From contig PLYL01000005.1 of assembly GCA_003151795.1 (NCBI GenBank), positions 1,011-65,010 of the forward strand: 64,000 nucleotides of DNA, written 5' to 3'. The stretch comes from Candidatus Yanofskybacteria bacterium. GTDB lineage: Bacteria > Patescibacteriota > Minisyncoccia > 2-02-FULL-40-12 > GWA2-44-9. Positions 1,536-47,226 of this stretch are shown piece by piece; the first letter of the stretch is position 1; every line of letters starts with the position of its first letter. A program made the translations under genes and the position numbers. Under the pieces are notes generated by a model. It made no database searches. It saw nothing but the letters and a program-made list of their open reading frames with translations, and was not told the origin of the DNA.

Positions 1536-1587
1536 GCCCGCGATGGAGTTCGCCGTAAGGTTCGCTCTACGCGGGCCTTTTGTTTTT
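1536..1587 (+). terminator. Intrinsic terminator
   Basis: gcccgcg ... cgcgggc stem followed by cttttgttttt. Confidence 0.5.
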
Positions 1588-1618
1588 AAAGAGAAATGCT
1601 ACTATTTTGTATAGCCGC

Positions 1619-1648
1619 TCCAACATCGAAACAAACAGCCAGCCAATA
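1619..1648 (+). repeat. 30-nt upstream motif copy A (TCCAACATCGAAACAAACAGCCAGCCAATA)
   Basis: Near-identical copy at 2137..2166 and a weaker copy at 731..765. Copy A ends 4 nt before the ATG at 1653 and copy B abuts the ATG at 2167. Confidence 0.6.
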
Positions 1649-1652
1649 ATTT

Positions 1653-2108
1653 ATGAAAAATGTTTTTGTTAAAGTTTCAGGAGATTTATTTGATGATCCT
1701 GGATTTATAAAATTCTTAAGAAAATTAAGTGAGCGTAATATTACTATTTGCGTTGGTGGAGGAGCTCAAATTAACCAAAAATTTCATGGCAGAAAAACTG
1801 CACTAAAAAGACACGGACCATTAGGAAGAGAACTTAATTCTACAAAAGAAAAGCAATTAGCAAAAAAAGTATTAGAGAGAAATAAAAGGCGGCTTCAAGG
1901 CATACTTTCTATAGAAAGAATAAAAGCCAAGGTGATTATCCCGGTTTTGAATGTTGGTCAAGTTATGTGTCATATAAACAGTGACGAGATGCTAAGGGTA
2001 GCTTACCTGGGATATGACGAGTTGTATGCTATTACCTTAAAAAATAGAGTATTGTCTAAACGACAGCAGTTTTCTAATTTGCCAAAAATAAAAATAATAG
2101 GATTATGA
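1653..2108 (+). CDS. Short amino-acid-kinase-fold protein (UMP-kinase-like N-terminal motifs), AT-rich
   Basis: VFVKVSGDL and ICVGGGAQI resemble the PyrH/amino acid kinase motifs (KLSGE.., VVGGGN). Only 151 aa. About 33% GC versus about 50% in flanks. Confidence 0.4.
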   Translation: MKNVFVKVSGDLFDDPGFIKFLRKLSERNITICVGGGAQINQKFHGRKTALKRHGPLGRELNSTKEKQLAKKVLERNKRRLQGILSIERIKAKVIIPVLNVGQVMCHINSDEMLRVAYLGYDELYAITLKNRVLSKRQQFSNLPKIKIIGL

Positions 2109-2136
2109 TACTCGAGACCGATCATCCTAACACCGT

Positions 2137-2166
2137 TCCAACATCGAACCAAACAAGCCGGCCAAT
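2137..2166 (+). repeat. 30-nt upstream motif copy B
   Basis: TCCAACATCGAACCAAACAAGCCGGCCAATA, about 27/30 identical to 1619..1648. Confidence 0.6.
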
Positions 2167-2742
2167 ATGAAAAAAATAAAACTTGTAGAAATAACCGGAA
2201 AAAAATTTGTTCTTGAGCCCCGGTATTACTTTTTCGGATGGTCAAAGTCATCGAAGATACTGGGCCGCCAATCGGCAATTGTCGCCTTATCTAAAGCAGA
2301 GAAGTTGTTACCGGCCGGATATAAATTTAAAATTTGGGATTGTTTTCGGCCCCGAGAGGTGCAGATTGCCATGGTTGATAGTTTTAAGAAAAGATTGCGC
2401 GTCATGCACCCGGCCGCGCCACCCAAGCAACTTAAGCAGTTGGTTGAAAGATACGCGGGCAAGGTGCCGCCGCCGCTTAAAATTGAACGGCTGGACACTC
2501 ACCGCAACGGCGGTTCTTTTGATTTGACCGTGGCCGATGACGAGGGCCGGGAACTTTATATGGGGACTGATCATGATGACTTGACTCCCAAAGCCGCCAC
2601 TGATTATTTTGAAAAAATTAAAGGCTTGACCGGATTAGAGCGTGAAGCCAAAAAGAACCGGCGCCTATTGGCCAAAACTTTAACCCAAGCCGGTTTTATA
2701 AACTATAAAGAAGAATGGTGGCACTGGAGCTGGGCCAAATAA
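2167..2742 (+). CDS. VanX-like D-Ala-D-Ala dipeptidase (peptidase M15D)
   Basis: HRNGGSFDLTV and C-terminal EEWWHWS motifs are typical of VanX-family dipeptidases. Confidence 0.7.
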   Translation: MKKIKLVEITGKKFVLEPRYYFFGWSKSSKILGRQSAIVALSKAEKLLPAGYKFKIWDCFRPREVQIAMVDSFKKRLRVMHPAAPPKQLKQLVERYAGKVPPPLKIERLDTHRNGGSFDLTVADDEGRELYMGTDHDDLTPKAATDYFEKIKGLTGLEREAKKNRRLLAKTLTQAGFINYKEEWWHWSWAK

Positions 2743-2823
2743 TTCCGGATTGTTTCATCTCTTGCACAAGTTGTCCGAGAAGGGTAGTATGAGAGATAAG
2801 AGCAATGTTTAAAACATACGCCT

Positions 2824-3168
2824 ATGGAAATCAAGAAAAAAGACATCAAGAAAATAAAGCACGCGACCAAGGAACAGTTGGGCAAGTTGCATGAGGAGTA
2901 CAAAGCAACGACGCAGAATGTGAGCGGGATGAGCCCGGTAGGGCTTCTAGCGATCGCAGTTGTCGGCATCGTATTGATGTTCTTATTCCCGAACAGGTTC
3001 TTCCTGCTTGTCGGACTTATCCTGATCTTGTATCCGATCTACGTCTTCGTTCGGCGCGGGGCCCATCGCGAGGGTTATTTTGAAGGTTATTATGAGATGA
3101 TGACCAAGCTTAGCCAGCGGGAAGATGGGCATTCGGACTCCCAAAAGTCCGACTCCGACAAGGAATAG
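2824..3168 (+). CDS. Hypothetical membrane protein (2 TM)
   Basis: Hydrophobic segments LLAIAVVGIVLMFLF and LLVGLILILYPIYVF with an acidic C-tail. Confidence 0.4.
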   Translation: MEIKKKDIKKIKHATKEQLGKLHEEYKATTQNVSGMSPVGLLAIAVVGIVLMFLFPNRFFLLVGLILILYPIYVFVRRGAHREGYFEGYYEMMTKLSQREDGHSDSQKSDSDKE

Positions 3169-3216
3169 CCACTTTTCGCGCTTGTACCGGCTTTTAGTCG
3201 GGATTATAATACAAAC

Positions 3217-3606
3217 ATGAAACCAGACTATTTCGTGTCCCTGAAGCATTACTACGGGGATATCGTCCGGAAACTCTTTTTTGCCGCCGCGATTTTAATG
3301 CTCGCCAGCCTGCCGTTTTTCAGCGACCGTCTGCCGGTTTCAACGATTGACTCTCTGGTAATCATCGTGGCGATTGGATTTTTCGCCGGTTTAACCAATC
3401 CGGTCGAACCGTTTCCAGCGATTATCAATACTCTCACTTCCGGCGTGGCGGTGGTAATTTTTGAATATTACGCGGTTCTGACCTATCAATTAAATTCAGC
3501 CAGTGACCCCTTGTTTTTGGCCGATCAAGCGCTCGCTATTATTTTCCTGTTCGCGCTGTATTATGGAACCAAGACTTTGCGGGCGATGATGATTGATAAA
3601 AATTAA
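3217..3606 (+). CDS. Hypothetical membrane protein (129 aa)
   Basis: Multiple predicted TM helices. The stop codon abuts the left arm of IR element 1. Confidence 0.45.
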   Translation: MKPDYFVSLKHYYGDIVRKLFFAAAILMLASLPFFSDRLPVSTIDSLVIIVAIGFFAGLTNPVEPFPAIINTLTSGVAVVIFEYYAVLTYQLNSASDPLFLADQALAIIFLFALYYGTKTLRAMMIDKN

Positions 3607-3744
3607 TCCCGCACATAACAGCCATATGCAGTAGATAGTGCGGAATTAGTTAAATTAACAAGACAGACCATACGACAAGCTCATTGCGTGGACTTAAGTA
3701 AAAAGTACTGCCCGAGAGCACTAGATGGCTGTTATGTGCGGGAT
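3606..3744. repeat. IR-element copy 1: perfect 20-bp inverted repeat (ATCCCGCACATAACAGCCAT / ATGGCTGTTATGTGCGGGAT), 99-bp spacer
   Basis: Arms at 3606-3625 and 3725-3744. The right arm overlaps the ATGAATAAA start of the DoxX gene. Confidence 0.8.
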
Positions 3745-4177
3745 GAATAAATTCCAAAGAATTTCGTTGCTTCTTCTGCGGGTCAGTCTCGGGTGGATGT
3801 ATTTTTGGGCGGGGATTACCAAAGTGGTTGACCCGGCCTGGTCGGCGGCCGGGTATTTGCAAGGGGCTAAAACCTTTCCGGCTCTTTTCCACTGGTTTGC
3901 TTCGCCCGCCTTACTGCCCCTCACTAATTTCGTAAATGAGTGGGGTTTGACCCTGTTGGGAGTTTCGCTAATTCTTGGTTTAGGCGTTCGCTGGACGGCC
4001 CCATTCGGGATTGCGCTCATGGTCTTATATTATCTCCCGATTCTTCAATTCCCATACCCGAATGTCAATTCATTTATCGTTGACGAGCATTTCATTTATG
4101 TCTGCGGACTTATCGTCCTCCTGGCGTTCAACGCGGGTAAATTTTGGGGGATGGATAGACGCGTCAGTCGCGCTTAA
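3743..4177 (+). CDS. DoxX-family membrane protein
   Basis: RISLLLLRVSLGWMYFWAGITK fits the DoxX signature. Start placed at ATGAATAAA (MNKFQ...). Confidence 0.65.
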   Translation: MNKFQRISLLLLRVSLGWMYFWAGITKVVDPAWSAAGYLQGAKTFPALFHWFASPALLPLTNFVNEWGLTLLGVSLILGLGVRWTAPFGIALMVLYYLPILQFPYPNVNSFIVDEHFIYVCGLIVLLAFNAGKFWGMDRRVSRA

Positions 4178-12706: not shown

Positions 12707-13132
12707 ATGCAAATCGTTCTGACGGCCGTCATGGCTTTGATTGTTGCCTGGCTATTCTTCGATTATATCGTCGTCAAAAAGTGGCTTCGGTCATGGGCCG
12801 ATAGCTATTGTCGGAATCGTGTCTGGTGCGTCTGTCGGGTGAACAACCGAATCGGATTAGTCACTCGAAGATACTACGACCAGGTATCACGTGAATACTG
12901 GCGATGGGAACTCAGGTCACAAACTGAAGAAACCAGAGGTTATGTCAGAGGGCATTTCATTGCGCCATACGATGTTGTCATACTCGACGCCACTAACCCC
13001 CAAGCATTGAAGTTACTGAGAGGCCTCCTTCTTGAGCGCCGAGAATTCCTTGTTCCACCAATTGAAATGAGGATTGAGGAAGCTTACAAGAAAATTAATG
13101 GCTGGTGGAATAAATATCCAGACCAAGGTTAG
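12707..13132 (+). CDS. Hypothetical protein with N-terminal TM
   Basis: ORF with a hydrophobic N-terminus followed by a hairpin terminator. Confidence 0.4.
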   Translation: MQIVLTAVMALIVAWLFFDYIVVKKWLRSWADSYCRNRVWCVCRVNNRIGLVTRRYYDQVSREYWRWELRSQTEETRGYVRGHFIAPYDVVILDATNPQALKLLRGLLLERREFLVPPIEMRIEEAYKKINGWWNKYPDQG

Positions 13133-13241: not shown

Positions 13242-13337
13242 TTGTCTTATTCAATTTATCTTCTCAAATGCGCCGACGAAAGTCTCTACTGCGGGATTAC
13301 GACTGATGTGGCGCGGAGGTTTAGGGAGCAGTATTAA
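13242..13337 (+). pseudogene. Truncated GIY-YIG nuclease 5' fragment (about 31 codons). It duplicates the 5' end of the 14161..14430 gene.
   Basis: (TTG)SYSIYLLKCADESLYCGITTDVARRFREQY*. About 88% nt identity over about 75 nt to 14176-14250, then divergence and a stop. Confidence 0.55.
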
Positions 13338-13490
13338 CTATCCACATCTCATTGACTTTTAATGCGACGAGGCGTATGCTGGAGATGTAGAGGTTGTATC
13401 GTAGCTTGGTAGCAGGAATGCTAATTAAATACGTTAACCCCACCGCCCTCTGGCTTGCCGGATGGCGGTTTTAGTTTTATCATTTATTTG

Positions 13491-14138
13491 ATGAAAAGAG
13501 CTTTTGTTTTTATTGATGGTAGCAATCTTTACTACCGGCTTAAGGGTATCGCCGGATTTTATATGAAAGAAAATGGCAAGGATTACAGTATGAGCCATTT
13601 TAAGTTTAAGGAGTTTTGTAAATGGCTGGTAGGCGACAACGGTCTACAAGAAATTCATTATTATATTGGTCAAATTAAGCGACCCAATCCTCAATCAAAA
13701 AATTCTCAAAAAGCAGAACAGATGTATTCGAGTCAGCAAAGACTGGCAGGCTACTTACAGGCTCAAGGGATAGTTATGAAGTTTGGGAAGCTTATGAGAG
13801 ATCCGAGCCGTCCTGATGTGTACCATGAAAAAGGTGTTGATGTGCAAATTGCTGTAGAAATGATTAGATTCGCTCGTCAGGATAAGTATGACATTGCTTA
13901 TTTGATAAGTTCAGATACTGATTTAGTTCCAGCAGTTCAAGAAGTGAAGGACCTTGGAAAAGAAGTTGTCTATGCTGGAGTTAAATTAATTCCTATAGGA
14001 GATACTAATAATACAAAAAAGAAAAACGTATTTGGCATTTCCTATGGCTTACTCGGTACCGCAAGCGATGTTAAGTTAATTGAAAAAGAGGATATAAAAC
14101 CATTTTTAGTATTACGAGAGGATACTCAAGTTAAGTAG
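13491..14138 (+). CDS. NYN/LabA-like (PIN-fold) domain protein, AT-rich
   Basis: FIDGSNLYY, KGVDVQIAVEM and SSDTDLVPAV are NYN-domain acidic catalytic motifs. About 37% GC. Start set at MKRAFVF. Confidence 0.65.
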   Translation: MKRAFVFIDGSNLYYRLKGIAGFYMKENGKDYSMSHFKFKEFCKWLVGDNGLQEIHYYIGQIKRPNPQSKNSQKAEQMYSSQQRLAGYLQAQGIVMKFGKLMRDPSRPDVYHEKGVDVQIAVEMIRFARQDKYDIAYLISSDTDLVPAVQEVKDLGKEVVYAGVKLIPIGDTNNTKKKNVFGISYGLLGTASDVKLIEKEDIKPFLVLREDTQVK

Positions 14139-14160
14139 GACGCTTATATATTATTAAGGT

Positions 14161-14430
14161 TTGATTTACTTTATCTACCTTCTCAAATGCGCGGACGGCA
14201 GTCTCTACTGCGGGATTACGACTGATGTGGAGCGGAGGCTTAGAGAGCATCGGGCGGGGAAGGGCGGGAATTACACGCGAGCGCATAGGGCGGTAAAGAT
14301 GGTATATATAGAGAGGTGCAAGGATAGGTCGAGCGCTTTGAAGCGGGAAGCGGAGATTAAACGGCTATTACGAGCGGATAAACTCAAGTTAATTAAACAC
14401 CCGCCAAAATTTTATGGAAACAAAACTTAG
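14161..14430 (+). CDS. GIY-YIG nuclease superfamily protein (YhbQ/UPF0213-like)
   Basis: IYLLKCADGSLYCGITTDVERRLREH are GIY-YIG core motifs (GIY ... YIG-like, R, E). Confidence 0.75.
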   Translation: MIYFIYLLKCADGSLYCGITTDVERRLREHRAGKGGNYTRAHRAVKMVYIERCKDRSSALKREAEIKRLLRADKLKLIKHPPKFYGNKT

Positions 14431-15043
14431 GCGGGCAAGCACAAAACATCTCGCGAAGGTTGACCCGATTTTGAAAGAGCTGATGAAGCGGGTGAAACCA
14501 CAGATCTATCCATTGCAGGATAATTATTTTCGTTCCTTGGTGCGGGCTATCGCGAATCAGCAGTTGTCGGGCAAAGCGGCCCAGACGATTCTCAATCGGA
14601 TGGTGGCATTGTTTCCCAGGGGCGAATTTCCGACACCGAAGCAGTATCTGAAAATGCCGGACGGGAAACTTCGTGCGGCGGGGTTTTCATTTTCCAAAAT
14701 CGCCTACACCAAAAATATCGCCCAATTTTTCATCGAGCGCGAGAAAGAGATGCAAAAGATTAACGAACTCACGGACGAAGATATTATTAAACTTCTGACC
14801 GGCGTGAAAGGCGTCGGCGTCTGGACGGCCGAAATGTTTCTGATGTCTTCGCTGGGCCGGGAAGACGTATTCTCATACGGCGATCTCGGCCTGCGAAAAG
14901 GTTTGCAGAAAGTCTACAAGTTTAAAAAAGAGCCGACGCTCAAACAGATGCAGAAAATCGTGGAAGCCTGGAAACCCTACCGGACCCACGGCGCTCGCTA
15001 TATGTGGGCCAGTTTGGCTAAACCCGAACCAAAAAAGAAGTAG
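14414..15043 (+). CDS. DNA-3-methyladenine glycosylase II (AlkA-like, HhH-GPD family)
   Basis: HhH motif LTGVKGVGVWTAEMFLM and the catalytic Asp region GDLGLRKG. Confidence 0.7.
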   Translation: METKLRRASTKHLAKVDPILKELMKRVKPQIYPLQDNYFRSLVRAIANQQLSGKAAQTILNRMVALFPRGEFPTPKQYLKMPDGKLRAAGFSFSKIAYTKNIAQFFIEREKEMQKINELTDEDIIKLLTGVKGVGVWTAEMFLMSSLGREDVFSYGDLGLRKGLQKVYKFKKEPTLKQMQKIVEAWKPYRTHGARYMWASLAKPEPKKK

Positions 15044-16882: not shown

Positions 16883-17590
16883 ATGATTGATTTAAGTCAC
16901 ATCCAAAAAAAATACGATGACGAAGCATCGGCGACGTTAGCCCTTGACGATGTTTCATTCAAAATCGATCCGGGCGAATTCGTGGCCATCATGGGCCCGT
17001 CCGGTTCCGGCAAGTCCACCTTGCTCCATATTTTGAGTTTCATGGATCGACCCACGGCCGGTGCGTACACCTTTTACGGCAAGGACATGAGCGACTTGAG
17101 CGATGCGGAACTCGCGTCTATCAGAAACAAGGATATGGGTTTTGTGTTCCAGTCGTTTAATCTTTTGGCCCGTCAGAGCGTCTATGACAATGTCGAAATT
17201 CCGCTCATGTATTCCGATATCAAAATTGCCGACCGCAAGAAACTCGTCGAAGACGCCGTCAAGGCGGTGGGCTTATCGGAAAAACTGCACGTCGAAGCGG
17301 GCAAGCTTTCCGGCGGCCAAAAACAGCGCGTCGCTATCGCCCGCGCCTTGGTTTGTAATCCGCGGGTGATTTTTGCCGACGAGCCGACGGGAAATTTGGA
17401 TTCCAAATCCGGCGGCCAAGTCATGAATATTCTCGAGGACCTGCACGCCAAAGGCCATACCATCGTCTTAGTTACCCACGAGACGTACACCGCCGGCTAC
17501 GCCAATCGTTTGATTAGAATTAAAGACGGCAACGTGGAATTTGACGGTCCGACCGAGAAGAGCCACGAACACGGTACGTTCGTTAAATAA
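16883..17590 (+). CDS. ABC transporter ATP-binding protein (MacB/LolD-type)
   Basis: Walker [10 protein letters not shown], signature [15 protein letters not shown], Walker [12 protein letters not shown]. Confidence 0.85.
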
Positions 17591-17595
17591 AATAT

Positions 17596-18843
17596 ATGCA
17601 ACTTTCCGATACTATTAAAACCTCGCTCAAGGGCCTCCGCCAATCCAAGACGCGGACGGCCTTGACCATGCTCGGAATTATTATCGGCATCGCGTCGGTG
17701 ATTTTGCTCATGTCGATTGGTCAGTCGGCTCAAGATTATATTTTGGGCCAAGTGCAGGGGATTGGTTCGAACCTTATCTTTGTCATCCCGGGTGGCTCCA
17801 ACAAAAGTTCTCGCCTCGCGTCGCCCGCTTCCGTCCAAGGCATTGTCATCAAAACCCTCAATCAAGCCGACCTTGAAGCCCTGGGCCGTGAAGCCTCCAT
17901 CGCGAACGTCGCGCCAGAAGTGCGAGGCCAAGCTCGCGTCGTGTACGGCAGTAATGACGATTCGGTCACGTTTGACGGCACGACGCCGAATTTCTTCTCG
18001 CTTCGAAATTACACGATTGTGGAAGGCTACCAATTTACGCAAGACGACGTGGATTCATTTAATCATGTCGCGGTCCTGGGTTCGGAGCTCGCCAAGACCT
18101 TATTTGAAAATTTCGACCCTATCGGTAAAAGTATCCGTTTGAATAATTTAAATTTCACCGTGGTTGGCGTGCTGGGTCCGAAAGGCGTGGGACCGGGTGG
18201 TATCGACCAAGATAACATCGTCCTGATGCCGGTGTCGGTCGCGCAGAAGCAGTTACTCGGGATTGATTATTACAATACCATCACCGTGCAGGCGGGGGAT
18301 GCGTATGACATTAATTTTACCAAGGCGCGGGTGACGTCGGTGCTTCGCCAAGACCACGGCATTACCGACCCCAACAAAGACGATTTTACAATTGAGACCC
18401 AAGCTGACGCGGAAGCATTGCTCGGTAGTATTACATCCGTATTAACATTGTTCCTGACCGCGATTGCCTGTATCTCGCTCGTCGTCGGCGGTATCGGCAT
18501 TATGAACATCATGCTCGTGTCGGTCGTAGAACGCACCCGAGAGATTGGCTTGCGCAAAGCCGTCGGCGCGACGGACAAAGATATTATTCAGCAATTTCTA
18601 GTGGAAGCTTTGATGCTGACCTTCTTCGGCGGGCTTGTCGGTATTGCCGTCGGCGCGTTGCTCACCGGCCTTATTTATCTCGGGATTGTTAATTTCACGA
18701 CTGTCGCCTGGACGTTCGCCCTACCGATGACCGCGATTTTGCTCGCCACCGGCGTGTCGATTTTTATCGGCATCGTGTTTGGAATTTATCCGGCCCGCCA
18801 AGCCGCCCGCAAAAGTCCGATTGAGGCGTTGCGTTACGAATAA
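17596..18843 (+). CDS. ABC transporter permease, FtsX/MacB family
   Basis: N-terminal TM, a large extracytoplasmic domain, then a C-terminal 3-TM FtsX domain (ERTREIGLRKAVGA motif). Confidence 0.8.
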   Translation: MQLSDTIKTSLKGLRQSKTRTALTMLGIIIGIASVILLMSIGQSAQDYILGQVQGIGSNLIFVIPGGSNKSSRLASPASVQGIVIKTLNQADLEALGREASIANVAPEVRGQARVVYGSNDDSVTFDGTTPNFFSLRNYTIVEGYQFTQDDVDSFNHVAVLGSELAKTLFENFDPIGKSIRLNNLNFTVVGVLGPKGVGPGGIDQDNIVLMPVSVAQKQLLGIDYYNTITVQAGDAYDINFTKARVTSVLRQDHGITDPNKDDFTIETQADAEALLGSITSVLTLFLTAIACISLVVGGIGIMNIMLVSVVERTREIGLRKAVGATDKDIIQQFLVEALMLTFFGGLVGIAVGALLTGLIYLGIVNFTTVAWTFALPMTAILLATGVSIFIGIVFGIYPARQAARKSPIEALRYE

Positions 18844-23568: not shown

Positions 23569-24282
23569 ATGATTAAATGTACGGATATCGAAAAAATTTA
23601 CCACGATGGCGGCGATCCCACCGTGGCTCTGAAGAATATTTCTTTTACGATTGAGAAAGGCGAGTTCGTGGCCATTATCGGGCCGTCCGGTTCGGGCAAA
23701 TCAACCCTGATGCATATTCTGGGCGCGCTCGATTCTCCGACCAACGGCATTTATGAGCTCGATGGCAAAAACGTTTCAGCGCTGTCGGAAGAACAGCTGG
23801 CCGATATCAGAAAAAAGAAAATAGGATTTGTGTTTCAGTCGTTTAATCTGTTGCCTCGGGCGACAGTGCTGCGCAACGTCGCTCTGCCGCTGGTGTACGC
23901 CGACGTTCCGGAAGAAGAACGCCTGGCACGTGCCCGCCAAGCCTTGTTGAGCGCCGGCATGGATGAATCAAGGTTCGACCATCTTTCCAACCAATTATCG
24001 GGCGGCCAGATGCAAAGAGTCGCCATCGCCCGCGCCCTGGTGAATGACCCGGCCCTGATTTTGGCCGACGAGCCGACCGGAAATTTGGATTCCAGAACCG
24101 GCGAAATTGTGCTCGACACGTTTCAAAGGCTGAACCGGGAACTGGGGCGCACGATTATTTTGATTACGCACGAGCCGTACGTCGCCGAACACGCCGACCG
24201 CATTATCACGGTCAAAGACGGGATGATTACCAGCGACGTCAAAAATTTGCATAAACGAATCATCAATCACCATGACGCTTAA
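23569..24282 (+). CDS. ABC transporter ATP-binding protein (MacB-type, paralog)
   Basis: [34 protein letters not shown]. Confidence 0.85.
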
Positions 24283-25495
24283 AGATTTATTTCAAGAGAC
24301 TTTTTCCGCGATTACGGTCAATAAAGTCCGGTCCGGCTTGACCGTGCTCGGGATTGTCATCGGCATCGCCTCGGTCATCGGTTTGGTCTCCATCGGCCAA
24401 GGCGCCCAAAATAGCATCTCCGCCAGCATCCAATCAATCGGCTCGAATCTGATTATTGTCACGCCGGGCGCCGCGCGCGGGGCGGGCGTGCAGTTCAGCG
24501 CCGGCCGGGGCAGCGCCCAAACGCTGACCCAAGCCGATGCCGACGCGATTAAAGCTACCGTAACTGAAGTCGCGGGCATCGCGCCCGAAGTTTCCCGCCG
24601 CTACCAAGTCATCGCCGGCGGGCTGAATACGAACACGAGCGTCATCGGCACCGTGGCGGATTATACCAATGTCCATAATTTTCAAATGGATGAAGGGTCA
24701 TTCATCACTGACCAGCAGGTCCAAAGCGTCGCCAAAGTGGCCGTGCTCGGCCCGACGACGCGAGACGATTTATTCGGCGTCGGTTCGGAAGCGCTCGGCC
24801 AGAAAATTAAAATCAACAAAATAGAATTTACCGTCATCGGCACGACAATTGCCAAAGGCGGTTCCGGTTTCACGAATCCGGACGACGCAATTTATGTCCC
24901 AATCTCGACCGCCCAGCATTATCTGGCCGGCGGGAATTACGTGACGGGGATTGATTTGTCGGCGGTGAGCCAGCCGGCGATGGTTGACGTCCAAAATCAG
25001 GTTACTAGTTTATTGCTCCAGCGCCATAATATTTCCGATCCGACCCTGGCTGATTTCAGCGTCATGAACCAGAATGACATTACTTCGGCCGCGTCCAGCA
25101 TCACTAACACCTTTACCCTTCTTCTGGCCGCCATCGCCGGTATTTCGCTCGTCGTCGGCGGAATCGGCATCATGAACATGATGCTCACGAGCGTCACCGA
25201 ACGGACGCGTGAAATCGGCTTGCGCAAAGCCATCGGCGCGACGCCGAAAGATATTTCTCTCCAATTTTTAACCGAATCAGTGATGCTGACATTTTTCGGC
25301 GGGGCCATCGGCGTTGCCATCGGCTGGGGTATTTCCCTTCTCGCCGGCCATTTCTTGAGCCTGAATACTTCCGTAACATTATCTTCCGTCGCACTGGCTT
25401 TTGGCGTTTCGGCCGGTATCGGGATTGTTTTCGGTTATTACCCTTCGCGTCGTGCCGCCGGTCTTAATCCCATTGAGGCATTGCGTTACGAATAA
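24272..25495 (+). CDS. ABC transporter permease, FtsX/MacB family (paralog)
   Basis: ERTREIGLRKAIGA motif and 4-TM topology. The ATPase stop overlaps its start. Confidence 0.8.
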   Translation: MTLKDLFQETFSAITVNKVRSGLTVLGIVIGIASVIGLVSIGQGAQNSISASIQSIGSNLIIVTPGAARGAGVQFSAGRGSAQTLTQADADAIKATVTEVAGIAPEVSRRYQVIAGGLNTNTSVIGTVADYTNVHNFQMDEGSFITDQQVQSVAKVAVLGPTTRDDLFGVGSEALGQKIKINKIEFTVIGTTIAKGGSGFTNPDDAIYVPISTAQHYLAGGNYVTGIDLSAVSQPAMVDVQNQVTSLLLQRHNISDPTLADFSVMNQNDITSAASSITNTFTLLLAAIAGISLVVGGIGIMNMMLTSVTERTREIGLRKAIGATPKDISLQFLTESVMLTFFGGAIGVAIGWGISLLAGHFLSLNTSVTLSSVALAFGVSAGIGIVFGYYPSRRAAGLNPIEALRYE

Positions 25496-44496: not shown

Positions 44497-45498
44497 TTGA
44501 AAATACTCAATAAAGTTTCAGTGGCAGTGTTGGTTGTCGCGGTGGTACTTGGTCTGTCTGGGCTAGTTACCGCGCTCGCGGCCACGACGCCCTCGCTGGG
44601 GACTGCATCATCTTATGGCGTTCTTGGCAGTACCTACACCAACGGGTCGGCAACCACAATTAATGGCGATGTCGGATTTACTACCGGCCCGTCCGTGGCG
44701 CCTTTGGGGACACATACCAATTACGGCAGTGGCGCCCCCTATTCTGCCGCCGGCACAGATCAGGCCACCGCTTTAGCTAATCTTAATAGCCAAGCCTGTA
44801 CATTTACTTTCGCGGCCGGAGCCATCGATCTCGCTGCGGATACGACCCATGGTGCGATTGGAGTTTACGCTCCCGGAGTATATTGCGTATCCGGCGCGGC
44901 CTCCATTGGCACAGCCGGGATTGCTCTTAATGGCGCCGGAACATATATCTTTAGAGTCAACGGCGCGCTTACTACCGTCGCCAACTCTGTCGTTACATTG
45001 CCCGGTAGCGCTTCATCCTGCGATGTCTTTTGGACGCCGACTTCGGCGACTACGCTTGGCGCTAACTCTACTTTAAGAGGAACTATCATTGATCCTTCCG
45101 GCATTACTATCGGCAGCACGACGCTGTTGACCGGCCGGGCCTTAGCTTTTGGCGGAACCGTCACGACCGATACGGATACTATTAGCGTGCCGGCGTGCAC
45201 AACTCCAACGGCTACACCCACCCCAACGCCAAGCGCGACGCCTACCCCGACTCCGAGTGTGACTCCGACGCCCACGGCCACACCGAGTGTTACGCCGACC
45301 CCTTCTTCGACCCCAACTCCCACCCCGACACCAAGCGCGACCCCCACCCCCACCCCCACCCCGACCCCTGTTCCTGGGTTGCCGAGTACCGGAATTGGTC
45401 CCGATGATAGCGGTGCTCCATGGAACGTAATAATTCCCGCCGGAATTTTCGTTGCCTTGCTGTCACTTTATTTAGCTCGTAAGAAATTAACGGTTTAG
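44497..45498 (+). CDS. LPXTG-anchored surface protein with Thr/Pro-rich repeats
   Basis: Signal peptide, (TPTPS/ATP) repeats, and a C-terminal sorting signal LPSTG plus hydrophobic segment plus RKK tail. Confidence 0.65.
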
Positions 45499-45501
45499 TT
45501 T

Positions 45502-47226
45502 TTGTGGCGATTTTTGATAGACCATATGTCGAATCAGACCAAAAGATTTAGTTCAATTTTAGTAGTTGTCGTGTTGGTTTTGGTTGGTAGCTTCTCTAGA
45601 TATCAAATTGCTTTAGCGTTGGGTGGTGAAGGTACAGCTACAATAGATGGTAGTGCCTCCGGTGGAAATGTGAGCGTTGTACAATCAACCTCGCATAAAT
45701 TTACCGTTATTTTAACGATTGGCGCGGATGGAATTACTGTCGATGCTCAAAATCCAACCTTTACTATTCCGACCGGCTTTACTGCGCCAACTAACCCTGT
45801 CGCAAATGCAGGACTTGTATTAGCTGATGGTGATTGGTCTGCCGTAGGTGGTGCGACTTGTCCGACTACAATGGGTTCATCCAGTAATTCAGGACAAGTA
45901 ATAACAGTTGACGTAACGACAGTCTGTACAGTCGGTCCCGGAGGCACAATCACTCTTACCTATCAAGGACAATCTGCGTCAACAATGTCAGCGTCACCTC
46001 TTGTTATAAAAACTGCTGTTGATATTGGCGCGGGTGCACCAACGGCTATTGCCGCTCCGCCGACAATTACCGTTACGGCCAGCGGCACTCCCACCCCGAC
46101 CCCGAGCGCAACGCCCACACCTTCTGCTACTCCCACACCAACTCCAGGCAGTGGTTTACAATTGGCGACAATCAATGTCGTTAAAAATGTCATCAACGAC
46201 AACGGCCGAACCAAAATCGTCGCCGACTTCCCATTATTTGTTAACGGCACCCTAGTTGTTTCCGGCGTGACCAATACCTTCCCGGCGATTAATGGCGTGT
46301 ATACCGTCACCGAAACCGGCGACCCCAACTACACGCGGACGTTCTCCGGCGATTGCGATGCTAACGGCCAACTGAACCTCACTCAAGGTCAAAATAAATT
46401 TTGTATCATCACTAACAACGATATTGGCCCGCCCATCGTCGTGCCGCCCGTGCCGCCCCTTATCGACGTAGTGAAGACCGCGAGCCCGTTATCTTTACCA
46501 AACGGCCCTGGTCCCGTGGTGTATACTTATACCCTTCGCAATATTGGTGTCGTTCCAGTAAGCAATGTCACTATGGTCGGCGATACGTGCAGTCCAATCG
46601 TCCTTACTTCCGGCGACGCAAATAGCGATTCCAAACTAGACGTAAATGAAACGTGGGTATATACCTGTTCCACGACGCTAACTCAAACCCACACCAATAC
46701 TGTTGTCGCGATGGGTTGGGCGAACGGTATTAGCGCCGTTGATATCGCCAGCGCAACGGTTATCGTCGGCGCCCCGGTTGTCCCGCCCTTGATTCACATC
46801 ACAAAAATTCCAAGCCCGTTAACGTTGCCGGCGGGAGGGGGAATGGTCACGTACACCAAGACGGTTACAAATCCAGGGACAGTTCCTTTAAGCAATGTTC
46901 GCCTCACGGACGATAAGTGCAGTCCGGTGAGTTATGTTTCCGGGGACGCTAATGGCAATTCGAAGCTCGAACCCAGCGAGACCTGGATATACACCTGTCG
47001 AACACGCCTCACCCAAACTACGACCAACACCGTCATCGTCGCGGGAGATGCGAATGGCCTAACCGCGAGAGATTTCGCAATTGCGACAGTCGTGGTCGCT
47101 GATGCTAAGCCGACACTTCCAAATGCGGGAGTTGCGCCCGATGATAAGAATACTCTTTTCGGTCTTATTATTTTGGCCGGTATCTTTGGGATTGCGATTG
47201 TTGCTCACCGAAAACAACTTGTATAG
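45502..47226 (+). CDS. DUF11-repeat surface protein with LPNAG-type sorting signal
   Basis: Signal peptide, repeated DUF11-like modules (VNETWVYTCSTTLTQTHTNTV / LEPSETWIYTCRTRLTQTTTNTV), and C-terminal LPNAG plus TM plus HRKQLV. Confidence 0.6.
   Translation: MWRFLIDHMSNQTKRFSSILVVVVLVLVGSFSRYQIALALGGEGTATIDGSASGGNVSVVQSTSHKFTVILTIGADGITVDAQNPTFTIPTGFTAPTNPVANAGLVLADGDWSAVGGATCPTTMGSSSNSGQVITVDVTTVCTVGPGGTITLTYQGQSASTMSASPLVIKTAVDIGAGAPTAIAAPPTITVTASGTPTPTPSATPTPSATPTPTPGSGLQLATINVVKNVINDNGRTKIVADFPLFVNGTLVVSGVTNTFPAINGVYTVTETGDPNYTRTFSGDCDANGQLNLTQGQNKFCIITNNDIGPPIVVPPVPPLIDVVKTASPLSLPNGPGPVVYTYTLRNIGVVPVSNVTMVGDTCSPIVLTSGDANSDSKLDVNETWVYTCSTTLTQTHTNTVVAMGWANGISAVDIASATVIVGAPVVPPLIHITKIPSPLTLPAGGGMVTYTKTVTNPGTVPLSNVRLTDDKCSPVSYVSGDANGNSKLEPSETWIYTCRTRLTQTTTNTVIVAGDANGLTARDFAIATVVVADAKPTLPNAGVAPDDKNTLFGLIILAGIFGIAIVAHRKQLV

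Follow-up and report, generated by a model that had tools for sequence, protein, structure and literature searches.

A self-contained NYN-family gene module, probably acquired by duplicative insertion into a resident GIY-YIG gene of Candidatus Yanofskybacteria

The stretch of DNA analysed here, 64,000 nucleotides (nt) of contig PLYL01000005.1 from a Candidatus Yanofskybacteria bacterium (hereafter the window), contains a NYN-family gene that is flanked on both sides by the 5′ end of a small GIY-YIG gene. We consider it fairly probable that a self-contained NYN module from a lower-GC Paceibacterota lineage was duplicatively inserted into a resident GIY-YIG gene of the UPF0213 type. A first-pass annotation of the window had already proposed that the NYN gene arrived by an insertion that duplicated the GIY-YIG 5′ segment, and the edges of the module, its GC content at third codon positions (GC3), the existence of NYN-free relatives and the recurrence of the pattern elsewhere all support this view. 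The same annotation had also suggested a nuclease-associated mobile cassette, a part that is not supported in light of the conserved synteny of the GIY-YIG gene and its absence from all 31 NYN loci inspected. The stub, the module with all its parts, the intact GIY-YIG gene and its downstream partner lie on the + strand.

A repeat finder applied to the window identifies an 89-nt direct repeat at positions 13242–13330 and 14161–14249 (85% identical, spacing 919), which is unique of its type within the 64 kb. The best local alignment pairs 13254–13330 with 14173–14249 (69/77, 90%), the repeat includes a 31-nt identical core, and the 13 mismatches between the copies are of all kinds. The duplication of about 85 bp reported in the first-pass annotation is thus borne out, as are its upstream coordinates, the downstream ones being 1–3 nt off. 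Copy 1 (13242–13330) is a dead 5′ stub comprising codons 1–30 of a GIY-YIG gene, as indicated by the repeat alignment, Pfam and a family hidden Markov model (HMM). The 31-codon open reading frame (ORF) at 13242–13337, correctly described before as truncated, matches Pfam GIY-YIG at E 3.8e-6, the family HMM matches 13248–13328 at 1.6e-13, and the stop codon at 13335–13337 is created by the junction. Copy 2 (14161–14249) constitutes the first 89 nt of an intact gene with a TTG start (14161–14430), the product of which is, as originally read, an 89-amino-acid (aa) GIY-YIG protein (Pfam, 73 bits, 2.3e-20, profile positions 2–76 of 78) that resembles the small UPF0213 proteins of known structure over its whole length (PDB 1ywl, 3e-16; 1zg2, 6e-16).

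The insert between the two copies spans 13331–14160 (~830 bp) and comprises a promoter, a leader and the NYN ORF, and nothing more. The left junction and left module edge (13331–13351) are delimited by the end of the homology to copy 2, at 13330, and the start of the homology to NYN loci elsewhere, at 13338–13346, with the module edge placed 0–7 nt past the end of repeat copy 1. In the flank alignment, the NYN-locus homology begins a few bases before ATTGACTTTTAAT (13351), the promoter sequence, and ends at the stop codon or up to 60 nt beyond. The module tail (14139–14160, ..ATTATTAAGG), which the flank alignment finds to be common to three other contexts, terminates with TTAAGG at 14160 and abuts the TTG start of the intact GIY-YIG gene. 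At the DNA level, other NYN contexts resemble the window only from 13346, 13389 or 13401 through 14119, 14139 or 14159. Thus, the boundaries of the module match the edges of the repeat, which argues that an insertion at the GIY-YIG gene brought NYN in. The composition of the insert is also distinct from that of its surroundings: GC is 0.364 for the NYN ORF (in agreement with the ~37% given initially) and 0.378 for the whole insert, ranging from 0.34 to 0.39 along it, compared with ~0.48 in the flanks, and NYN GC3 is 0.31 as opposed to 0.50–0.64 in six neighbouring genes. In every host, the GC3 of the NYN gene falls between 0.29 and 0.33.

The intact GIY-YIG gene overlaps by 17 nt a gene for an HhH-GPD (AlkA-like) DNA glycosylase (14414–15043), assigned by domain match and synteny, which is its conserved downstream partner and served as synteny anchor in a comparison set of 125 loci (1.39 Mb; labels of the form L088 denote individual loci). 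In six related lineages (L002, L113/114, L115, L116/117, L118 and L119/120), a single intact GIY-YIG gene is present at the syntenic place upstream of HhH-GPD, without NYN and without the stub, so that relatives free of the insert, for which the first-pass annotation had recommended a search, do exist. The two genes overlap in L113/114, L115, L116/117 and L119/120 and have a PGA_cap gene between them in L002 and in L118. The latter locus comes from the same sample as the window and is 82.6% identical to it at the nucleotide level over 3.8 kb downstream. The genome hit nearest to the window is a Candidatus Paceibacterota metagenome-assembled genome. Homologues on contigs of matching length in the two lists of matches suggest further GIY-YIG/HhH-GPD pairs. 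The conserved synteny with HhH-GPD identifies the GIY-YIG gene as the resident target and NYN as the newcomer.

Among related Paceibacterota, the NYN module itself recurs in five or more unrelated contexts, and in none of them does it neighbour a GIY-YIG gene. Its close homologues (84–93% amino-acid identity) occupy differing genomic places, namely after ychF (L082–87), after ftsK (L090), or between a PPDK-like gene and hicBA-prgI-traC (L088/89/94). No integrase, transposase or other recombinase gene is present within ~6 kb of the module, no terminal inverted repeats were found at its ends, and no relatives of the module or of its leader were found in viral contigs, on which ground a phage origin was rejected. 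A joint NYN and GIY-YIG cassette was likewise rejected, since neither the 31 NYN loci nor L124 contain a GIY-YIG gene.

Some of the NYN loci show further features. A decaying copy of the module with an internal 218-nt deletion, corresponding to window positions 13661–13878, is seen in L107 (683–1320). In L124 (872–2074), an intact phosphoglucomutase gene comes after NYN. In L082 (5994–7397, also L083), the NYN gene is followed by an HTH_17-containing ATPase-like gene, a DUF4325 gene and a 74-aa PGM_PMM_IV fragment, and the cargo there appears to have replaced most of the phosphoglucomutase gene.

We propose that the NYN expression module (~830 bp, 13331–14160) was acquired from a lower-GC Paceibacterota lineage and entered 89 nt into a GIY-YIG gene that is normally paired with the HhH-GPD glycosylase gene. 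The insertion would have been duplicative, placing the first 89 nt of the target on both sides of the module and thereby leaving an inert stub behind the original upstream region and a complete gene downstream. The intact GIY-YIG gene, now abutting the module, is presumably transcribed from or through it. Staggered-break fill-in, template switching or the single-crossover entry of a small circle could have generated the duplication in situ, probably with no involvement of an element-encoded recombinase and with the GIY-YIG gene acting as a passive target.

The relationship between the two repeat copies is consistent with an event within the lineage of the window. Both copies lack the ATG or GTG start present in 9/9 relatives, with TCT in the stub and ATT in the intact gene, and both have a TTG one codon upstream of the lost start (13242–13247 and 14161–14166). 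Each copy has the other as its best match (85%), copy 2 being about equally close to the L116 and L118 orthologues. The shared loss of the ATG, together with this nearest or tied-nearest relation, argues for sister copies that were made in the window lineage. When the 13 differences are polarised with four outgroups, about four changes are unique to each copy, those of copy 2 being mostly synonymous or conservative and those of copy 1 including G13E at a conserved glycine. Synonymous divergence (dS) from sampled relatives exceeds 1.2, and the value of 0.41 between the copies therefore places the event as old, yet younger than that split. As a side observation, the intact GIY-YIG gene is not called by a metagenome gene caller.

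A duplication signature around other NYN genes, which the first-pass annotation had thought worth looking for, recurs in L088 and L101, as revealed by self-comparison of the 125 loci and subsequent follow-up. In L088 (4776–6848), a prgI stub (codons 1–16) is followed by the NYN module plus 290 nt, a second prgI stub (codons 1–20), hicB-hicA and the intact prgI gene, an arrangement suggestive of two duplicative insertions, one after the other, at a single gene start. The stubs are 96% identical to each other, and stub 2 is 90% identical to the prgI gene, so that NYN entered a stub that was already there and non-functional. The L088 array (also L089 and L094) has a TraC-like gene after prgI, within a conjugation-like cluster. 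In L101, a 94-nt repeat (94% identical) takes in the −10 box together with 22 codons of a gene for a small membrane protein; its stub lies immediately left of a distant NYN gene, after which come two ORFs and the intact gene. In L113, where the target is the same GIY-YIG gene as in the window but the cargo differs, a 78-nt repeat (85% identical) of the GIY-YIG 5′ end brackets a pair of HATPase-like and DUF4325 genes. This pair has homologues (35% and 43% identical at the amino-acid level) in the two genes right after NYN in L082/L083. Within the region (1551–4011), the stub and a terminator hairpin that is duplicated separately (51 nt) enclose the pair, of which the first is HATPase_c-like and the second STAS-like, along with a dockerin-type ORF. 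The NYN gene of L090 is flanked by a repeated terminator segment of intergenic origin, which constitutes weaker evidence.

The five coding-gene stub events (the window, L088 twice, L101 and L113) share several properties, namely repeats of 51–94 nt (individual duplication lengths of 89, 51, 70, 78 and 94 nt), a left repeat edge located 0–28 nt upstream of the start codon, and cargo in the orientation of the target gene; in four contexts, between 0 and 65 nt separate the NYN module from a repeat copy on its left. No shared end motif and no terminal inverted repeats were found among the cargo junctions. Since the duplications are long and variable and neither a recombinase nor inverted repeats are present, a transposase or dedicated integrase is disfavoured, while the three routes named above are all compatible with these features. 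Repeats in L012 (an internal protein repeat) and in L009 and L004 (other repeat types) were rejected as stub footprints. The idea that left repeat edges coincide with the transcription starts of leaderless genes fits L113, L101 and L088, but is not relied on here, as in the window the best −10-like box is located ~25 nt upstream of the stub.

Several observations weigh against an in situ duplicative insertion of the NYN module. No available relative exceeds ~83% nucleotide identity, and hence there is no precise empty site, and no enzyme or end motif accounts for duplications of 49–94 nt. The NYN copies are deeply diverged (dS ~1), so their mobility is not recent. The two window repeats differ by 10–15%, with dS 0.41 and a ratio of nonsynonymous to synonymous divergence (dN/dS) of 0.28, and the stub retains all conserved GIY-YIG residues, somewhat beyond what is expected from random decay (p = 0.10 with 6 substitutions, 0.007 with 9). 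Such preservation could reflect two functional alleles or paralogues instead of one in situ duplication. Moreover, L121 (819–1420, compared with L119 5001–5300) contains a full GIY-YIG tandem duplication, with a 398-nt unit comprising the promoter, the whole GIY-YIG gene and the first ~42 HhH-GPD codons in copies that look ~95% identical on inspection. The tandem unit is absent from L119 and L120, the two loci with the same GIY-YIG protein, and the 1.4-kb contig of L121 might be an assembly artefact. A separate caveat, in favour of a nuclease cassette, is that in L074 (4026–4826), from distant Patescibacteria, a small GIY-YIG ORF is itself the cargo. Here a tRNA-Ser(CGA) 5′ stub is followed by the small GIY-YIG ORF, the intact tRNA-Ser gene and a second, dissimilar GIY-YIG ORF. 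The stub is 100% identical to the tRNA gene, starts 4 nt before tRNA position +1 and is split by a 42-nt insert with two hairpins exactly between anticodon bases 2 and 3.

A broader reading, to which we attach only a small but real chance, is that the stub events reflect an undescribed insertion process, recombinase-less or acting in trans, by which small accessory modules enter the first 50–95 nt of genes in Paceibacterota and other Patescibacteria. The duplicated stretch would then extend from a little ahead of the start codon up to the point of insertion, and successive rounds would build arrays of stub, cargo, stub, cargo and gene as in L088. Since the NYN module lies near a repeat copy in four contexts, NYN might contribute through the PIN-like nuclease that it encodes, or else the breaks might be made by resident GIY-YIG nucleases of the UPF0213 type.

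Homology-driven entry is an unlikely explanation of the window locus. It supposes that the donor NYN DNA already carried a piece of a GIY-YIG 5′ end and recombined within the 89-nt homology, either as a Campbell-type small circle or as a linear fragment by homology-facilitated illegitimate recombination, such that the repeat copies represent donor and recipient alleles. The 10–15% divergence of the copies and the resemblance of the stub to part of a functional allele are in keeping with this, the 31-nt identical core could support RecA pairing, and both transformation-linked duplication and one-sided homology integration have been described in other bacteria (PMC3784515, PMC3240628). The NYN module, however, is accompanied by a GIY-YIG gene or fragment in 0/31 loci elsewhere, the prgI duplications that bracket NYN in L088 would need a new homology piece each time, and the unusual absence of the ATG is common to the two copies in the window. 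Behind NYN in L088, a tblastn match (E 0.27) that might have been a degraded piece of GIY-YIG was rejected because its score did not exceed those of shuffles.

It is doubtful that the entire GIY-YIG gene had earlier been duplicated in tandem, as in L121, and that the NYN module then replaced most of the first copy. The 398-nt unit of L121 and the two GIY-YIG genes around one tRNA in L074 provide precedents, and a period as functional paralogue would explain the conserved residues of the stub. Such a history would require two independent events with coincident edges, yet there is no trace of the 3′ part of a first copy, of an HhH-GPD 5′ piece or of a second promoter, the module tail ends exactly where the start codon of copy 2 begins, and the pattern of stub, cargo and gene is seen at other genes too. 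The last 28 nt of the NYN ORF (14110–14137) do resemble positions 14366–14395, within the 3′ portion of the GIY-YIG gene (26 of 28 positions match, with a 2-nt indel; score 39, compared with a maximum of 28 among 500 shuffles). Both sequences are, however, native coding sequence of their own families, and NYN genes in other contexts have the same 3′ end. The C-terminal tail is thus native to the NYN family and the stretch is no local pseudogene remnant, so that a leftover of a disrupted GIY-YIG copy was rejected; chance or a short gene conversion are candidate explanations for the similarity.

It is quite improbable that the GIY-YIG gene was the active driver, whether within a homing-type NYN and GIY-YIG cassette or through breaks at its own locus that promote duplication and capture. 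Local duplications are present at 4 of ~11 distinct small GIY-YIG loci (the window, L113, L121 and L074), and in L074 the GIY-YIG gene is the cargo between the tRNA-Ser stub and the intact tRNA. Nevertheless, the GIY-YIG/HhH-GPD synteny is conserved in six lineages, NYN copies elsewhere are without a GIY-YIG gene, and the stub loci of L088 and L101 have none in the retrieved sequence. Homing GIY-YIG enzymes, such as I-TevI and the Seg proteins, are sporadically distributed, lying in introns or free-standing in mobile DNA, and contain an extra DNA-binding domain, whereas the protein of the window is a single 89-aa domain of the UPF0213 type with no DNA-binding module and its gene type occurs in conserved synteny, L074 being a possible exception in a distant lineage. 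These differences, together with the 0/31 count, speak against the mobile or homing cassette envisaged in the first-pass annotation.

An assembly artefact, in the form of a chimeric join of strain variants, is very unlikely: the window is indeed a metagenome scaffold, ENA ERZ28653421 (WOOD18-1 scaffold_2819), and the 1.4-kb L121 contig might be such a case, but the junctions lie at the repeat ends, where the copies share no k-mer, and outside the 31-nt identical core, making a simple k-mer chimera unlikely, while three contig records (possibly re-depositions of one assembly) have an identical NYN protein with the same neighbours and this architecture is also seen, at other genes, in independent samples.

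The NYN gene is the only ORF in the insert, there is no transposase within ~6 kb and there are no inverted repeats at the ends, unlike an insertion sequence or transposon, nor is there a short target duplication of fixed size, as the lengths vary between events. A pair of template and variable repeats from a diversity-generating retroelement was rejected because the mismatches are not adenine-specific and no reverse transcriptase (RT) is among the called genes of the window beside the repeat. As at a site-specific island, direct repeats of the end of the target gene flank the insert and an intact gene is restored, but there is no integrase within ~6 kb and the NYN module occupies at least five contexts, not one target. 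The e14 element and phage 21 in icd of E. coli, as well as islands in tRNA genes, insert in the end of a gene and carry its replacement. The likeness to the window lies in imperfect repeats of the target end that bracket the insert, with an intact gene and a displaced fragment, and in the ability of repeated entry to build arrays, as in L088. The window is distinct in that the 5′ rather than the 3′ end is duplicated, the insert measures only 0.8 kb and no integrase is involved, and NYN differs in that the same cargo is found in several targets with repeat lengths that vary from 49 to 94 nt.

Phage morons are single autonomous accessory genes with their own promoter, a terminator-like element and deviant GC. 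The NYN module resembles them in its presence or absence between conserved neighbours, its own promoter and its deviant GC, but it has no prophage context and its hairpin is upstream of the gene rather than after it. The L088 array is also similar to integron cassette arrays, with small toxin-antitoxin or defence-like units between repeats, in one orientation and at a fixed point. Here, however, the repeats are the 5′ coding ends of the downstream gene instead of attC hairpins and the cargo has its own promoter; that these ends are conserved as protein argues against attC, and no IntI gene was seen. Transformation-linked events in pneumococcus leave an interrupted and an intact gene copy on a far larger scale (PMC3784515). 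Transformation-linked duplications (Johnston et al. 2013, PMC3784515) and illegitimate recombination facilitated by homology (PMC3240628) have in common with the window that an inactivated and an intact copy coexist once foreign DNA has entered, and they require no recombinase encoded by the element. The duplications described there span 100–900 kb between insertion sequence repeats, in contrast to 89 nt in the window, where the cargo sits exactly at the joint.

Taken alone, the window represents an ordinary footprint of gene gain that corrects the idea of GIY-YIG as the mobile agent, and its novelty is modest. What is new is the recurrence of footprints consisting of 5′ stub, cargo and intact gene, which adds weight in that small modules of defence-like or toxin-antitoxin-like character (NYN, HicBA and HATPase-like plus DUF4325) are each found between a stub and an intact gene in several uncultured Patescibacteria. 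The novelty is higher if this recurrent architecture reflects one mechanism. Patescibacteria have reduced genomes with few recognisable mobile elements; a single process would help to explain how accessory genes are gained without disruption of the target, and 5′ stubs would offer a sequence signature for recent gene gains.

The module begins with a sigma-70-like promoter (TTGACT, 17 nt, TATGCT; 13352–13380), which occupies the same place in every close module copy in the form TTGACT-17-TATGCT/TATACT. It is followed by a conserved leader (13389–13490) that is 93–96% identical between copies whose ORFs have a dS of ~1, with synonymous sites near saturation. The leader includes a terminator-like hairpin at 13442–13469 and then a U tract to ~13481, consistent with the earlier remark that the NYN gene is preceded by its own hairpin. 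The hairpin and U tract are retained upstream of NYN genes down to 46–49% protein identity, L095–L111 among them. In distant homologues the hairpin directly follows a TTGACA-17-TATAAT promoter, whereas in the close copies, the window included, a longer leader separates the two. Compensatory changes affect 5/13 base pairs of the hairpin among 15 sequences, and the leader has no Rfam match at the gathering threshold, nor any meaningful one when E values up to 5 are admitted. The leader is a conserved cis element of the NYN gene family, for which an attenuator, a 5′ stabiliser and an autoregulatory target are candidate roles, and its hairpin represents a candidate new cis-regulatory RNA for a widespread, functionally uncharacterised nuclease family.

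The NYN/LabA-like gene (13491–14138) encodes 215 aa, of which residues 4–164 match PF01936 at 65.6 bits (cutoff 24.2; E 9e-18), so that a profile now confirms the NYN/LabA-like, PIN-fold assignment made earlier. Four acidic residues (D9, D117, D142 and D144), in addition to E113 and E123, are invariant in 26 homologues, and the product is a putative PIN-like nuclease under strong purifying selection (dN/dS 0.03–0.06 at dS ~1 against other copies). The above-threshold Pfam score and the four conserved acidic residues are shared with LabA-like NYN proteins (PF01936, COG1432), whereas the window protein differs in having no OST-HTH domain and a C-terminal extension of ~50 aa, and sequence comparison detects no solved structure for it. 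As nucleases, proteins of the LabA-like NYN type have yet to be characterised functionally (PMC5499597). The protein also matches the PADLOC HMM HEC-09 (E 1.3e-17, profile positions 1–146 of 203), a candidate that protected against none of the phages tested (bioRxiv 10.1101/2024.01.29.577857). The gene is not embedded in an Hma system and no other defence system surrounds it, its neighbours being a hypothetical gene, GIY-YIG and HhH-GPD, and the defence or toxin context proposed at first is thus a lead only.

The slot upstream of the GIY-YIG gene is variable and behaves like a hotspot for accessory genes: it is occupied by a 141-aa ORF and NYN in the window, by the HATPase-like and DUF4325 genes in L113, and by TPM, ABC1 or PMT genes in others. 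The 141-aa ORF (12707–13132) has no family match in Pfam, NCBIfam or PADLOC, is missing from the syntenic slot of L002, L115 and L118, and is possibly another accessory insertion beside the stub. A retron-type RT gene is located directly upstream of GIY-YIG only in L002 (5595–6683) and L115 (2615–3694), with PADLOC matches to RT_XIII / RT_III-A at ~1e-34 and a Pfam match to RVT_1. The remaining repeats of the window comprise paralogous ABC-transporter segments (17119–18654 and 23805–25324; 78–83% identical, ~6.7 kb apart) and Pro/Thr-rich coding repeats with a 12-nt period at 45187–46148.

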